Shown here: in pieces, positions 2,184 to 24,995 of the stretch
Numbering within the stretch: the first letter of the stretch is position 1
Layout: each line of letters starts with the position of its first letter
Virus record (IMG/VR): IMGVR_UViG_3300011335_000561
Location: 1 to 36,531 of that record
From: a virus
Lineage: Duplodnaviria; Caudoviricetes
Strand: one strand, 5' to 3'
Length of the DNA: 36,531 bases
Notes under the pieces: model-generated
Database searches by the model: none
Seen by the model: the letters and a program-made list of their open reading frames with translations, nothing else
What the model was told of the DNA's origin: nothing
Position numbers and translations under genes: made by a program

Positions 2184-2417
2184 TTACTTTTTATAAGGAT
2201 GTTCTTTATGCCATTTCTTAACTGAAGCTATTCCTTGTTTAACAGTCTTAGCTTTAGATTTTTGTGTAAGATCTATAGTATCCCATTTACCTTTATCTGA
2301 TGTAGGATGGGTTACCATAATACTACCCTTTTTACCTTTACCTAAACCTGTAGCACTTTCTTTTTTATACACTACATGTTTTTCACCACCTGCTGTAACT
2401 TTAGTTTTCTTAGCCAT
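2184..2417 (-). CDS. Small basic protein
   Basis: 77 aa Lys-rich ORF tightly packed between neighbours. Confidence 0.75.
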   Translation of the reverse strand: MAKKTKVTAGGEKHVVYKKESATGLGKGKKGSIMVTHPTSDKGKWDTIDLTQKSKAKTVKQGIASVKKWHKEHPYKK

Positions 2418-3391
2418 TATTTTGGTAATCCTGCTTTAAAAGTTGTTGTTAAATCAGTAAAAGTTGATGCATCTTTTGCTAGTTTTTGAAAACTCACTAC
2501 ATCTATATAAGCTTCATATCCATCATCTACATTTATAAATGTACCACTCATAAAAAATATATCTCTTGTACTACCATTAATTAAATTTGTTCCACCTATT
2601 GATTTTATACCTGTAGAACCAGTTAAAAATGTTTGACCTGCATCTCTTATTTTTTCAGTAGCATACACCATTCTAGCAGATGTATCTGGTAAAGCAGCAA
2701 GAGCAGATTTAAATGGATATAATGTATCAGTTAATAAAAACTGTTGATAATCATTAATTAAAAAATTTGCACCTGAACCAAATGTAGGAACTGATCCATT
2801 AGCAGCTACCCAAGTGATGGCTGCAAGTACAGCACCACAAGATGTATTTAATGTAGTTTGTCCTCTACGTAAACTTTGTCCTACCACTCCACTATTAGAT
2901 ATACCTATATGAGGCATGTTAATTACAAATAAAGCTCCTGTATCAGTAATATGACTTGCAAAAGCTCCCAATCCTGTAATACCTGTATGAGGATAACCAG
3001 CTAATCCACCTGAATAAAAAGGTCCAAGAAATTCATTTACTGAATTTGGTCCTTGACCTATATTATCATAATCTATAAAGTTTGGTCCATTTAAATCATC
3101 AGAACAAGCTGAAATAGAAGTAACCATATTATTAGCAGGATACCCTAAGTTCTTTAAAAACTTCTTAGTATATTCTCCAAATGCTTGAGCTGATACAGCA
3201 TTAGGGTATGTAACTCTAACTGTATTAGTATAAGAAGTTGGATTTCTAAAATCTGTGTTTTCATTTAATACCTCAATCCAATCTCCTGGTTTAGGTTTTT
3301 TAAATGAATAAGTTAATGTACCAGCAGCTATAGAACCATCTGGTGTACGTAGTACATAAGGTTTTTTAGGTTTGGTATTATAACTTCTCAT
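2417..3391 (-). CDS. LCIB/theta-type (beta-like) carbonic anhydrase domain protein with N-terminal extension
   Basis: SACSDD, GGLAGYPHTGITGLGAFASH, PHIGIS..G.VG..R.GQ and SCGA motifs give the Cys-His-Cys Zn ligand set of the LCIB family. Confidence 0.8.
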   Translation of the reverse strand: MRSYNTKPKKPYVLRTPDGSIAAGTLTYSFKKPKPGDWIEVLNENTDFRNPTSYTNTVRVTYPNAVSAQAFGEYTKKFLKNLGYPANNMVTSISACSDDLNGPNFIDYDNIGQGPNSVNEFLGPFYSGGLAGYPHTGITGLGAFASHITDTGALFVINMPHIGISNSGVVGQSLRRGQTTLNTSCGAVLAAITWVAANGSVPTFGSGANFLINDYQQFLLTDTLYPFKSALAALPDTSARMVYATEKIRDAGQTFLTGSTGIKSIGGTNLINGSTRDIFFMSGTFINVDDGYEAYIDVVSFQKLAKDASTFTDLTTTFKAGLPK

Positions 3392-3392
3392 T

Positions 3393-3476
3393 TTACTTTT
3401 TAGATTTTATTTTTTTTTCTTGTTTAAGCATTTCAGCAGATGGTTTTTTTCCAGAGCCTTTAGCAGCCCTGATGTT
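3393..3476 (-). pseudogene. Orphaned 3' half of the small basic gene at 4095-4262
   Basis: No ATG at the 5' end of the frame; reads NIRAAKGSGKKPSAEMLKQEKKIKSKK*, paralleling NLRSKAAQNKKTGAKPKAPTKAMLSQEEKIKSKGK* upstream of the GIY-YIG gene. Confidence 0.65.
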
Positions 3477-4098
3477 ATATTATAACATGTTTCCAACTTT
3501 TACCTCGATGAATATCCTTCACAGAATGATAACTTACTTGTAAAGTATCTGCAACATGTTTAGGAAGAAGACCAGTTAACAAATGTTTCTTAATCTCAAT
3601 GACTTGTTCTTCTGTAAGTTTAGCCATTTTATGATTAGAACCAGTTTTCCAATTCTTTGATAAGTTTTCTAAATGTTTATTTCTATAATTCTCATCTTTC
3701 CAGTTCTGTTTTTGAGAAACTGATTTCTTATACTTAACTTCTTCAGTTCTTTTTATACCAATATTGCTACCAGCAATCTTAGCAATGTTGTAATGCGGTT
3801 CAAGACTATCTATATACCGTTGTTCAGTTTCTAGAATTTTATCAGTAAAACACTCACAAACAATCTCAAACTTAAAGTTATCTTCTCCATGTTTATTAAC
3901 TGCTCTAATTAGTTTAACACAAGTATTTTTATTAGAACGTATATCATGTATATGAGTGTAATATCTTTTTATTAAATTATTTGTACTTCCTATGTAAAAC
4001 TTACCGTCAATAGTATTAGTAATTTTATAAATAACTCCTCCTTTTTTCTTTTCAGAGAAGTATTTTTGTTTACACTCATCACTAATAACTAGTATCAT
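3475..4098 (-). CDS. GIY-YIG homing endonuclease with NUMOD/HTH DNA-binding tail
   Basis: GVIYKITN..KFYIGST..R..H, EQRYID..YN; KRTEEVK (NUMOD3-like); C-terminal AKLTEEQV..GKSWKH HTH. Confidence 0.9.
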   Translation of the reverse strand: MILVISDECKQKYFSEKKKGGVIYKITNTIDGKFYIGSTNNLIKRYYTHIHDIRSNKNTCVKLIRAVNKHGEDNFKFEIVCECFTDKILETEQRYIDSLEPHYNIAKIAGSNIGIKRTEEVKYKKSVSQKQNWKDENYRNKHLENLSKNWKTGSNHKMAKLTEEQVIEIKKHLLTGLLPKHVADTLQVSYHSVKDIHRGKSWKHVII

Positions 4099-16344: not shown

Positions 16345-16579
16345 TGTTGTTTACTATTTGTGGTTGTCTCAATAAATCTTTACCTGAACTCTTACCCATT
16401 TTTCTAAGAAGAGAATGTCCCCTTAGTTCATGATCATGCACCCATGTAACAATTCCTTTATGTTTATGTAATTCTGTAAGATAACATTTATGAGCATTGT
16501 TCTCTGGTATAAGAAGTCCATCATCAAAACTATTAAGAAGGTCTTCTAATAATTGAATTTCATTATTCTCCATATTCAA
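16295..16579 (-). CDS. Hypothetical protein
   Basis: 94 aa in operon direction. Confidence 0.55.
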   Translation of the reverse strand: MNMENNEIQLLEDLLNSFDDGLLIPENNAHKCYLTELHKHKGIVTWVHDHELRGHSLLRKMGKSSGKDLLRQPQIVNNNDTPIKPNAPYKKNIR

Positions 16580-17213
16580 AATTTAAAATTTTTCCAACTA
16601 AATCACTTCTATGATTATGTTTAAGTTTAACCCATTCAATGCCGTCAATCTTTTTACTAAGTTCTATAGCATAAGACAACCCATTGAAAGGGTCTTTAAT
16701 ATCTTTTTGTTCATTATCTCCATTGATAATAATCTTACCATTTTTTCCAAGTCTAGTTAGAATAGCTAACATTTCAGCTTTAGAAAGATTTTGGGCTTCT
16801 TCTACAATAAGAACATCATCTATTGTTTTACCTCTAATAAACTGTACAGGAAGAGCATTCACTTTTTTACTAGATATTATTTCATCAATCCTCACCTTAT
16901 CATAACACTTAATTAAGTTCTCTTGAAAAGCTTCTAAATAAGGATCAAACTTTTCATTTAAACTTCCTGGAAGAAATCCTAATGAATGACCCACTTCTAC
17001 AGCAGCTCTAGTAACTAGTATTTGTTCATATTGTTTTTTAAATAAAAAGTCAAGGGCTGTTACAGCAGACACTAAACTTTTACCACATCCTGCTCTACCT
17101 GTAATGATAACTATTTGATTATCAATAATTAATCTTTTAGTTTCTTTCTGTTCTTCATTAAGTGATATTTTATATTTAATCTCACCCTTTAAAACTTTCT
17201 TTTCTTTTTCCAT
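16563..17213 (-). CDS. phoH: PhoH-family ATPase
   Basis: GRAGCGKS, LGFLPG..EKFDPY, FIRG.T, EEAQN, LTRLG, GD..Q.D, HRS.LV. Confidence 0.92.
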   Translation of the reverse strand: MEKEKKVLKGEIKYKISLNEEQKETKRLIIDNQIVIITGRAGCGKSLVSAVTALDFLFKKQYEQILVTRAAVEVGHSLGFLPGSLNEKFDPYLEAFQENLIKCYDKVRIDEIISSKKVNALPVQFIRGKTIDDVLIVEEAQNLSKAEMLAILTRLGKNGKIIINGDNEQKDIKDPFNGLSYAIELSKKIDGIEWVKLKHNHRSDLVGKILNFEYGE

Positions 17214-21535: not shown

Positions 21536-22379
21536 TACACTATTGACATTAATTCTTATTAATAACTTAACGTGTTACCTTAGTAGGCAAGAGCATCTTT
21601 TGAAATGATATATAAAGCTTGTCTATTAATACTAACTAGTAGGGGTCTTACAACTATGATAGAAGGAAATAGCTTACTCCATTGTAGACAATAGCCTTTA
21701 AGCCGTAATAAGTTTAAAGGCTTTCTTATATTATTTAAGAATAAATAAAGTTGTCTCCAGCCTGTGGACAAAGTAGACTTTGGTATTGATAATCAGTTAG
21801 TTATAAAAATAGTTTTTAGTGATTATGAGTGTGTATGGGAGTGGGTGAAAAGACACAGAGCTATCTATTAACACACAAAAAGTGCTCTAAAAAATAAAAA
21901 AATGGCGGATAAGATGGCTATAACTCTTGAGAGCTGAATAAACTCTTACAAACTTGTGGGGCTTCTATGTTATTTATATATAGTATTATCAGTACTAGAT
22001 ATATATTCAAACACTCTGATAAGGTGTTAATAACAAGATGGTGCAGACTTAAAAATCAAGTAGTGCTTATATATAGGGAATAACAGAAACCTATTTATTT
22101 AGCTCTTTAAGGCAGTAATGTCCAAAATCTGTAATGTTGTACAAACCACCTCAACATTTAGTCTATAGGTTTGTGGTAAACCTAATTAATAATCTATTTA
22201 TCTATAAGGATAAATTAGATGCTTCTTATGTTTAGATGTTAGACCGTCACTTCTTTTATGGTTAAAGGAAGATACATTAGGAGTTTTATATTAAACAAAT
22301 CAAAAGCAAGGGCTGAGACCACAGCCCAAAAGTCCTAACTCAAAACCTCTGTCTGTAGGTATATACAGATACAACAATT

Positions 22380-22727: not shown

Positions 22728-22975
22728 CTCTGTCTGATCAACAGGGGCTTGACTATAGTGGTCTTGCAGGAATAAGAGTTATGGGTAACAACCATAAATG
22801 TTGATTATGACTCATACAAAAGGTGAAGACCATTCCTATTAGGATGAAACTAATCCTATAAATCAACTATAGGTTTCCCTGGAAAACTGGTTATTAAGGA
22901 ATCATAGTTAACACTCATATTGTCTGATGTATCAGAAGTGTTCTACCTTTTTACCAGTTTTTACGGAATAAGGAA
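22728..22975 (+). ncRNA. Candidate structured non-coding RNA(s)
   Basis: AGTGGTCTT/AAGACCATT, TTATGG/CCATAA, TAGGAT/ATCCTA, GTTGATT/AATCAAC (crossing), AAAACTGGT/ACCAGTTTT, AACACT/AGTGTT. Confidence 0.5.
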
Positions 22976-23020
22976 GCAATAGAAAATAATATTTATTCAC
23001 AATTAAAAAACAAATATATT

Positions 23021-23340: not shown

Positions 23341-23417
23341 AATAAGGTGCTATAAAGTGTCATACTAACCTGAACATAGAAATATGTCATAATTAGTGGA
23401 TGGACAGCCTTATTTTT
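23341..23417 (+). terminator. Extended hairpin with U tail
   Basis: AATAAGG/CCTTATT enclosing ACTAA/TTAGT and ACATA-GAAA-TATGT. Confidence 0.5.
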
Positions 23418-23611
23418 ATTAATGCACCATTCTCAAGTGGATATGAAGACTTCTTAGTTTTTAGGAAGCTGGGTTTAAACCAAAAGCTTAACTCTTGTAA
23501 AATATCTAAGATGTGAAACCACACTGATCATTAAATGTTAATGGCTATTATCAGTCAACCTCTGTTAATCAGTTTCCCAAGGGTGATAAAAAGATTTATT
23601 TTCCTAAACCC

Positions 23612-23642
23612 TTGGGAATGTGGTTTTATTGTTGTATCTTTG
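23612..23642 (+). promoter_or_regulatory. Bacteroidota sigma-A-type promoter (-33 TTG, -7 TATCTTTG)
   Basis: TTG 23612-14, 20-nt spacer, TAnnTTTG 23635-42, 4 nt before ATG 23647. Confidence 0.7.
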
Positions 23643-23646
23643 TAAC

Positions 23647-24177
23647 ATGATTACAATATACAAAATAACAAGTCCTACTGGTAAAATATATGTTGGACAA
23701 ACAAAAGATTATAAAAAAAGAATGAATTTATATAAAATTCTACATTGTAGAACTCAATATAGATTACATAACTCTTTGAAAAAATACGGTTTTGCAAATC
23801 ATATTTGTGAAATCATAGAAGAAATTTGTGATACAGTAGCAGATGAAAGAGAGCAATATTGGATTGCTTTTTATAAATGTTATTGGAAAGATGAAAATAA
23901 AGGTCTTAATCTCAATAGAGGAGGAAATAGACCTAAACATACAGAAGAAACAAAGAAAAAACTTTCTGAAATGTTTTCTGGTTCTAAACATGGTAAAGCT
24001 AAAAAACTATATCAATATACTCTCGATGGAGTATTTGTTAAAGAATGGTTTTGTATGAAAGATATAGAACGAGAATTTAATTATAAAACAACCTGCTTAT
24101 CTAAAGCAGCTAAAAATAATAGTAAAACTGCTTATGGATATAAGTGGTATTATGAACCTCAGCACGAGCAGTTGTAA
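23647..24177 (+). CDS. GIY-YIG homing endonuclease with NUMOD3/NUMOD1 domains
   Basis: TIYKITSPTGKIYVGQT..R, EQYWI..LN, KHTEETKKKLS, LYQYTLDG.FVKEW..TAYGYKW. Confidence 0.9.
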   Translation: MITIYKITSPTGKIYVGQTKDYKKRMNLYKILHCRTQYRLHNSLKKYGFANHICEIIEEICDTVADEREQYWIAFYKCYWKDENKGLNLNRGGNRPKHTEETKKKLSEMFSGSKHGKAKKLYQYTLDGVFVKEWFCMKDIEREFNYKTTCLSKAAKNNSKTAYGYKWYYEPQHEQL

Positions 24178-24299
24178 TTTGTGGTTGTCTATATGCAATC
24201 TATAAATTATCTTCTCGAAGGTAAACACTTTACAACTGAGTGCAGAGGGATATTTTTATTTAAACTCAAAAATGCCTAACAGAGCTTATCTGTATTACT

Positions 24300-24590: not shown

Positions 24591-24597
24591 AACTACT

Positions 24598-24995
24598 TAA
24601 TGCATTCTTCTAATAGTATAAGCATCTTATTATAGGCTGCTCACTTTGCAAGGTAAGGCTTACACAAATCCTGCACCAGAGGACAACCGTTAAGACAACC
24701 ATTTGAGAACTGAGTTAGTTGAAAGACTAAGGAAGCTATAAGATGTGATACTAGCTGATTAATCCTGTACCCTTGAAAAACTCGTATTATTCAAAAGGGG
24801 TCATACTCAGAATTGGCACACCTACTAAAGAAGGTGACAGTGTTTGGGCACATTTGATAGATAAGCAGGAATTAAAGGGGTAGAAAACTAATCAGTTTCT
24901 AGGAGAATAGTGTAATATAAATCAAAGGGTTAGCCACAAAAAAATAACTTAGGTAGAGGGTTAGGAACTACCATTATTACACTAAATGCATAAAG
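24598..24995 (+). ncRNA. Large (~400 nt) structured RNA, paralog of 23417-24252
   Basis: UGCAUU/AAUGCA closing helix, UUCUUCUA/UAGGAGAA, CAUCUUAU/AUAAGAUG, AGCUGAUUA/UAAUCAGUU, UAGUGUAAUA/UAUUACACUA, GAAA tetraloop; no ORF. Confidence 0.65.

Follow-up and report, generated by a model that had tools for sequence, protein, structure and literature searches.

A GIY-YIG homing-endonuclease gene inserted in a twister-like RNA gene of a crAss-like phage

The virus record IMGVR_UViG_3300011335_000561 of IMG/VR, linear and about 30% complete, was analysed over its whole length of 36,531 nucleotides (nt; 36.5 kb), which is called the window in the following. On its plus strand, between positions 23417 and 24252, lie the two halves of an RNA gene built like a twister ribozyme, and between them a GIY-YIG homing-endonuclease gene was found. 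A first-pass annotation had described this place as a twister core expanded by an extra domain and split by a self-promoted homing endonuclease, and the twister elements listed by it (U^AA, P2, T2, L4, P5, GA-GGG and P1) were all found where it had placed them. The features of the split element are:

23417..23436 (+): 5' arm of the twister-like RNA, from a position check, family conservation and covariation
23417-19/24250-52 (+): P1, 3 base pairs (bp) in the window
23420-22 (+): U^AA, from the sequence, with the predicted scissile bond 23420^23421
23423-26/24241-44 (+): P2, from the sequence and family covariation
23427-28 with 23581-82 (+): T2, CC with GG, from the sequence; a 3-nt linker follows CC
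23432-36 (+): P4 5' strand, ending in A, whereas C or U is found there in the family
23437..23573 (+): arm between the P4 5' strand and L4, composed of helices Pa and Pb
23437-40/23519-22 (+): Pa, its A-rich internal loop conserved, its arm variable
23523-28/23568-73 (+): Pb, with a variable interior
23574..23586 (+): L4 (9 nt, 23574-82), followed by bases one to four of the P4 3' strand
23587..24167 (+): inserted cassette of 581 bp with GA at both ends, from comparison with empty alleles and from the junctions
23608..23629 (+): inverted copy of L4 (23608-18) and of the Pa 3' strand (23619-29), overlapping the predicted -33 box; predicted hairpin
23612..23642 (+): predicted Bacteroidota sigma-A promoter (TTG 23612-14, 20 bp, TAnnTTTG 23635-42)
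23647..24177 (+): GIY-YIG homing-endonuclease gene, 176 amino acids (aa), with a NUMOD3-like motif
24157..24165 (+): tail of the open reading frame (ORF), pairing with 24240-49 and trapping the P2 3' strand and the catalytic G in minimum-free-energy (MFE) folds
24168..24252 (+): 3' half of the twister-like RNA, starting with the last base of P4
24169-77/24230-38 (+): P5; AG stands between P5 and the P2 3' strand
24245-49 (+): predicted general base G24245, followed by A24246 and T1 GGG 24247-49

The limits of the cassette, 23587-24167 with the left junction after 23586, had been proposed from the sequence alone and agree to the base with natural empty alleles. Fifteen viral loci contain an exact 21-mer of the arm, most of them running from the P4 3' strand into P5 without the 581 bp, and a junction-motif pattern matched at least 120 loci in IMG/VR (about 180 are estimated in the collection), which represent 109 distinct junction-bearing elements, namely 70 compact and 35 expanded ones, three cassette 3' flanks and one truncated element. 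Insertion-free homologues were thus sought and found, 105 of the 109 elements being free of the enzyme, and a 3'-end pattern gave at least 120 further IMG/VR loci (about 340 estimated). The compact RNA which the first-pass annotation had made by a double deletion occurs naturally, and each of the two deleted pieces is a real module. Across the family the interior of P5 measures 29 to 404 nt. With no intron family in the Rfam scan, and with flanks that are non-coding and match intact RNA genes, the cassette lies outside any intron or intein; a group I intron with an internal ORF was rejected on the grounds that it had no Rfam match in the window, that the flanks are twister halves and that the insert interrupts no host ORF. 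No record matched a pattern for the window-type 3' junction.

The extra domain proposed earlier at 23436-23572 is likewise a real module, its true limits being 23437-23573, one base further to the right. It is not peculiar to the window copy and is regarded as a family trait, because 35 of the 109 junction-bearing elements carry the same arm. Pa covaries, being paired as GUGG/CCAC in 25, GUAG/CUAC in four and GUGG/CCAU in two of 31 parsed copies, and the Pa arm of the window was also found in loci L014 and L023. Since shorter arms without the A-rich loop exist (L027, L051, L095), we infer from the sequences that the arm is a peripheral, optional domain rather than a second catalytic centre. 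Cores of hammerhead, hairpin, pistol and twister-sister ribozymes in the arm were rejected by eye against their consensus sequences, and Rfam gave none. The loop in Pa may resemble a UAA/GAN-type loop, a likeness for which a literature search gave no confirmation.

The defining features of twisters were taken from PMC5408937 and PMC6154101 and were compared with an alignment of 47 of the 72 parsed compact copies, 30 of them chosen for an unusual P4 or T1 and 17 of the majority type, from which one mis-parsed row and longer or redundant rows were omitted. When the twister structure was laid on these copies, 95.6% of the cells paired, as against 84.8% in shuffles (0 of 500 reached 95.6%) and 29-48% in slid registers of the same alignment. 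Two-sided changes, in counts inflated by related rows, were seen at 16 of the 27 pairs, among them all of P1 (4/4) and P4 (5/5) and two of the three T1 pairs; P2, of 4 bp, was 99.5% paired and had such changes at two of its four pairs. P1 beside U^A was paired in 170 of 256 cells of 64 compact copies, compared with 121 when shuffled, and was best in the canonical register. In the 64 copies that an independent 3'-anchored scan gave for T1, with neither T1 nor T2 demanded by the parser, the third T1 pair was C-G in 57 and A-U in seven and the second C-G in 62 and A-U in two, with no mismatch. GA was kept in 63 of 64 compact and in all 23 expanded parsed copies (the first adenine was demanded by the parser); the core is also retained in expanded copies as regards GGG, which stood in 21 of these 23 (of 35 expanded elements), and U^AA and the G and A bases are found in nearly all intact copies. 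The twister architecture is thus supported by covariation that includes tertiary pairs, and on these comparisons the family is best filed as a variant of the type-P1 twister with P5, for which self-cleavage is predicted. A family model (R1) scores window positions 24146-24254 with 40.2 bits (E about 1e-8).

The product of the inserted gene matched Pfam PF01541 above the cut-off, PF07460 (NUMOD3) below it (E=0.0016) and a PHROG homing endonuclease at 1e-19, and the R, E and N of the GIY-YIG catalytic motifs, at positions taken over from I-TevI, are present. It is 91% identical to the enzyme of contig L009 (which is also L138) and 86% identical to that of L007, with dN/dS values of 0.08 and 0.09; the enzyme is intact and under purifying selection, which suggests activity but names no target. 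The last codons of the gene are read from the P4/P5 strand of the ribozyme, and the stop codon (24175-77) falls in the P5 5' strand, as the first-pass annotation had recognised. Among 33 proteins retrieved at E<=1e-30, 11 end in EQL/KQL, three in HQG, 13 in a PL(H)-like manner and six otherwise; the EQL/KQL and HQG ends (14/33) are translations of the ribozyme strand, and the PL(H)-like ends (13/33), as in L007, are ambiguous.

The left junction of L009 is identical to that of the window, and a contig of run X16 holds a further diverged allele that bridges this junction. In L009, on the right side, and in L007 the end repeats of the cassette are longer and comprise a stretch of L4/P4, and the cassette of L007 has a short complete copy on one side and a second 3' half on the other. 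Two further lineages were recognised: in L223 a GIY-YIG of 28% identity occupies L4 of a compact copy, and in L007 one of 40% identity occupies helix Pa. Judged by these sequences there are at least three GIY-YIG invasions of this phage RNA family, and the insertion of a GIY-YIG endonuclease in a twister-like RNA gene, as a free-standing gene with occupied and empty alleles, is supported. The only ORFs of at least 100 aa between 5' and 3' halves were GIY-YIG genes (2/2), and the two ORFs neighbouring the element in the window had no close relative in the stored loci (one weak match of 36 aa). L007:1855-3295 holds two different GIY-YIG genes in tandem, each flanked by pieces of the same RNA family.

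The description of the gene as self-promoted agrees with a predicted promoter directly before its ATG. TTG-N19-21-TAnnTTTG has a single match in the window, which ends 4 nt before the ATG, and the box also stands 4 nt before the ATG in L138, in the first GIY-YIG gene (HEG1) of L007 and in L223. The -33 element and the spacing were assigned after the usual form of such promoters. Since a TAnnTTTG-type box is placed at -12 to -5 in PMC9723704, the predicted start would be the A of the ATG, that is, the mRNA would be leaderless. A pattern of promoter plus start returned only the two contigs already known. The mRNA predicted from this internal promoter would not include the cleavage site and would end in the P5 hairpin.

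As to whether the split copy could still cleave, the catalytic bases, T1 and T2 are all still perfect in the window, in L009 and, for the 5' half, in the X16 contig, and P4 is damaged in the window, where A23436 opposes G23583, the last G lies on the far side of the cassette and three pairs are left. Folding cost was defined as that of forcing P2 and P4 while L4 and the active-site strands stay free, in a model that omits pseudoknots and proteins. It amounted to 31.2 kcal/mol for the native window RNA and 28.8 for L009, as against medians of 8.2 (54 compact, 6.5-15.4) and 7.8 kcal/mol (16 expanded, 5.9-13.8) for intact copies, and with the cassette removed it was still 14.0 kcal/mol for the window RNA because of the damaged P4. 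The MFE cost dropped from 32.5 to 20.0 kcal/mol when the whole cassette was shuffled (25 shuffles, highest 31.3), and to 22.1, 26.6 and 17.8 when the leader, the tail or both were shuffled; the cassette ends hence contribute some 15 kcal/mol, and with or without them the copy is likely to be silent.

A strand of the cassette had been claimed to be able to sequester L4, and 23608-18 is indeed its perfect 11-nt complement (-18.9 kcal/mol), a length reached in 20 of 2000 leader shuffles. The anti-L4 hairpin has -22.9 kcal/mol and a z of -3.8 in the window; the z of the 5' hairpin is -4.5 in L138 and -6.2 in L007, both of which retain the anti-L4 part. This hairpin is specific to the lineage of the window and absent from the two other GIY-YIG lineages, and L007 keeps it although its forward arm lies outside any ribozyme half, so that a function in the cassette itself is favoured. 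It may serve to insulate against read-through; alternatively it may act as an operator, for it shares sequence with the predicted -33 box, much as the operator of I-TevI coincides in part with the promoter of that gene (PMC2988022). The ORF tail resembles the 5' strand of hairpin-only family copies, and because such copies without an ORF (L234, L321, L010, L014) have the same kind of 5' strand, the 3' mimic is, on sequence comparison, probably an inherited flank. Hairpin-only copies, seen in L234, L291, L305, L314, L321, L010, L014 and L091, have a 5' strand that pairs fully with the 3' end, are often without L4, look much like the 3' flanks of the endonuclease cassettes and could be relics. 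The further pairing of CCUCUG with the 3' CAGAGG did not hold up, as it comprises only 6 bp, MFE folds pair CAGAGG with the cassette's own tail, and CCUCUG is absent in a related allele. It had also been supposed that the insertion switches the ribozyme off or makes it conditional: the former stands as the likely outcome and the latter does not, because local hairpins trap both halves and P4 is damaged, so that in these models the window copy is likely dead and not a switch.

We consider it rather probable that a free-standing GIY-YIG gene at the P4/P5 junction homes on the core of the twister variant and that its host copy is no longer able to cut itself. The likely homing site would be the conserved core of a multi-copy RNA family; in mixed infections the enzyme would cut empty alleles near L4/P4, and repair would copy the cassette in, with homology provided by the conserved 5' arm and the P5/3' arm. 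Expressed from its own promoter, the enzyme would be made from a leaderless mRNA without the 5' half and with the P5 hairpin as its end, and in read-through RNA the inverted copy would hold L4 and the ORF tail the 3' half, such that the active fold would not form. Splicing would be unnecessary for a parasite of a dispensable RNA gene, and loss of a copy would be tolerated because these phages often carry several copies as well as other ribozymes. Relatives hold up to four family copies per 5 kb, and the same lineage of the enzyme sits at the same spot amid different neighbours in L009 and L007.

Several observations weigh against this explanation. The enzyme was seen inside the RNA in only three IMG/VR contigs (L009, L007, L223), ribozyme flanks were present, among the loci retrieved by protein, at one of 80 from viruses, none of 80 from metagenomes and none of six from genomes, and the remaining loci of this search are distant GIY-YIG relatives (25-46%) not tied to the RNA. 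A joint that skips exactly the cassette was found in none of 8 runs, in contigs that cannot show RNA ends; the X16 contig extends 5' of the predicted cut by just eight aligned letters, may derive from DNA and says nothing about cleavage. In T4, the sites cut by free-standing enzymes lie far from where their genes are inserted, so that the target need not be the ribozyme. The omission of pseudoknots and proteins bears on all folding costs, and with a shuffled cassette the cost is still about 20 kcal/mol. As regards the identity of the RNA, the published consensus (PMC5408937) has T2 as GC and an essentially invariant G-C pair closing an 8-nt L4. In the family T2 can pair in 47 of 47 rows, but as CC/GG and with one-sided (U-G) changes only, and L4 is of 9 nt (a loop length that the first parser fixed), closed by C-G, A-U, U-A or G-C. 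The Rfam twister models gave no match in the window and nothing at E<=10 on 20 family loci or on two short natural copies; for the enzyme-free form natural compact copies were scored in place of the construct deleted in silico. A poor score against twister models, which the first-pass annotation had named as speaking against it, was therefore found in part, even short natural copies giving no Rfam twister score; the same models do score a canonical twister elsewhere in L087 (49 bits).

Recombination within the family was considered as well. Among 114 elements with parsed P5, 15 pairs share at least 24 nt of the interior, and 13 of these 15 have unrelated flanks on both sides, from which the conserved cores appear to be recombination points. 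This fits repeated cutting, but it also supports the idea that the enzyme cuts elsewhere like the T4 seg enzymes and merely rides in repeated RNA genes, which as recombination hot spots would make any passenger swappable. T4 free-standing enzymes are indeed described as cutting hundreds to thousands of bases away (PMC2988022). We nevertheless hold such passive transport to be unlikely: no fixed distant target is evident, because the lineage keeps one site while its neighbours change, three lineages occupy three points of the conserved core, the two ORFs of at least 100 aa between halves are both GIY-YIG genes, and the target-like sequence overlaps the promoter, as in I-TevI.

Little credence is given to a split ribozyme that remains functional by looping out the ORF at the P5 branch, its complementary strands making cleavage conditional, for instance on translation of the ORF tail. 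The site of the insert, next to a stem whose interior varies so widely in length, would suit it, as would the preserved catalytic bases, T1 and T2, and ribosomes would presumably melt the tail hairpin because the stop codon lies in P5. Yet P2 and P4 each have a predicted probability of 0.000 in the native RNA, and taking the cassette out brings them to no more than 0.002 and 0.000, P4 keeps just its three pairs, the anti-L4 hairpin forms about 600 nt before the 3' half is made, and the mRNA from the internal promoter would be without the cleavage site. That the host RNA is instead a twister-derived structured RNA with another job, for example in stabilising or processing RNA, seems very improbable, for although the deviations in L4 and T2, the missing Rfam score and the existence of hairpin-only and G-less copies (e.g. 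window 24597-24990) point that way, two T1 positions show covariation, nearly all intact copies retain U^AA, G and A, and hatchet, pistol-like and canonical twister ribozymes lie nearby.

Homing on the twister-variant core may be extended to a wider and doubtful proposal, by which phage twister genes would be a homing niche, at least three lineages recognising a catalytic core that cannot change; in the lineage of the window the inverted target copy at the promoter would serve both as operator for autorepression and as anti-ribozyme strand, and repeated cutting would swap arms and, upon loss of the gene, leave hairpin-only relics.

The window, from a crAss-like phage, carries a Crassvirus major capsid protein (PF23898) as well as terminase and portal genes. 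BLAST against annotated phages found no copy of the split element, which is located in the early arm, amid a stretch dense in structured non-coding DNA; apart from three runs marked as possible sources, a sediment metagenome run (X4) shares 93% of the words of this stretch. In this surrounding the following was found:

21924-22061 (+): hatchet ribozyme, Rfam 79.8 bits against a gathering score of 51, 1.4 kb upstream of the split element
22740-22980 (+): non-coding, structured DNA with several hairpins, without a match in Rfam or in the stored loci
23342-23414 (+): hairpin just upstream of the split element, with conserved ends and a variable stem, without a match in Rfam
24597-24990 (+): second RNA with the scaffold of the expanded twister variant (P2, Pa, Pb, P5)

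Canonical twister, hatchet and pistol-like ribozymes were noticed near family copies or in the surroundings of the window element. The motif of the upstream hairpin also precedes family copies in L024 and L091 (two of nine pattern matches), the remaining seven matches looking like unrelated coding DNA; in L091 the window's hairpin (72/73 nt) stands before an expanded copy without the enzyme. In the second RNA U replaces the catalytic G and L4 is degenerate, and it is likely a dead paralogue of the twister variant. The modules nested in it match an intergenic stretch of Leptolyngbya phage Lbo-JY46 at 88% over about 110 nt and, at 89% over 47 nt, a tRNA-array spacer of cr126_1. An exact pattern search for 'element B' returned no records.

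Farther away, the minus strand carries a second, distant GIY-YIG gene (3475-4098), which was rejected as a close relative of the cassette enzyme with 33% identity over 75 aa only, an endonuclease VII-type gene (1354-1932) and an LCIB/C-type carbonic anhydrase domain (2417-3391; PF18599, E 5e-33), the latter in a crAss-like phage; positions 16563-17213 hold a PhoH gene.

The known locations of homing endonucleases comprise introns, inteins, intergenic DNA and, in a few cases, protein genes that are split. The present arrangement was compared with known systems. With the type-P1 twister with optional P5 (Rfam RF03160; PMC5408937, PMC6154101) the family shares the order and pairing of P1, P2, P4 and T1, the place of a possible T2, the U^AA step, the active-site G and A, the optional P5 and the lack of P3; it differs in its 9-nt L4 with variable closing pair, T2 of CC/GG, a P5 that is long and always present, the optional two-helix arm at L4, the lack of an Rfam score and, in the window, a copy split by a gene. 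The enzyme resembles the free-standing GIY-YIG enzymes of T4 (segA-G, with SegB among tRNA genes; PMC2988022) in its GIY-YIG domain with NUMOD-type tail, in residing in no intron or intein, in having its own promoter and an upstream hairpin, and in its patchy occurrence. It lies inside a structured RNA gene, which it breaks, whereas the T4 enzymes named lie between genes, and further differs by a predicted leaderless sigma-A transcript and a predicted target that is its own insertion site. I-TevI in the td group I intron (PMC2988022) is likewise a GIY-YIG ORF in a catalytic RNA, with an ORF end that overlaps the RNA structure and a target-like sequence over its own promoter. Unlike the td intron, the host RNA here is a putative small nucleolytic ribozyme with no means of removing the ORF by splicing, and the insertion is consequently predicted to destroy, not preserve, host function. 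HEARO/OMEGA and IStron elements (PMC13565253) also join a nuclease ORF to a structured RNA, from which the window element differs in having no RuvC/IscB/TnpB protein, an RNA that is mostly ORF-free and no evident guide. No homing endonuclease inside a small self-cleaving ribozyme was found among the papers listed by literature searches, the supplements of the original twister surveys being places that may hold the variant, and passages of PMC10085705, PMC6765202 and PMC13565253 and the abstract of PMC10448857 do not describe the arrangement. The parts are thus of known kinds, and the ribozyme gene as a homing niche was not found in print as far as these sources extend.

The twister-variant family spans some hundreds of IMG/VR records that are missed by Rfam, and its optional arm, placed at a loop considered inaccessible to insertions, has implications for twister structure and for the design of ribozyme switches. 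The purpose of many phage ribozymes is presented as an open question in PMC6765202, and the occupied and empty alleles constitute a natural knock-out series for their function. If the proposed homing is true, ribozyme genes would be a landing site for selfish genes.
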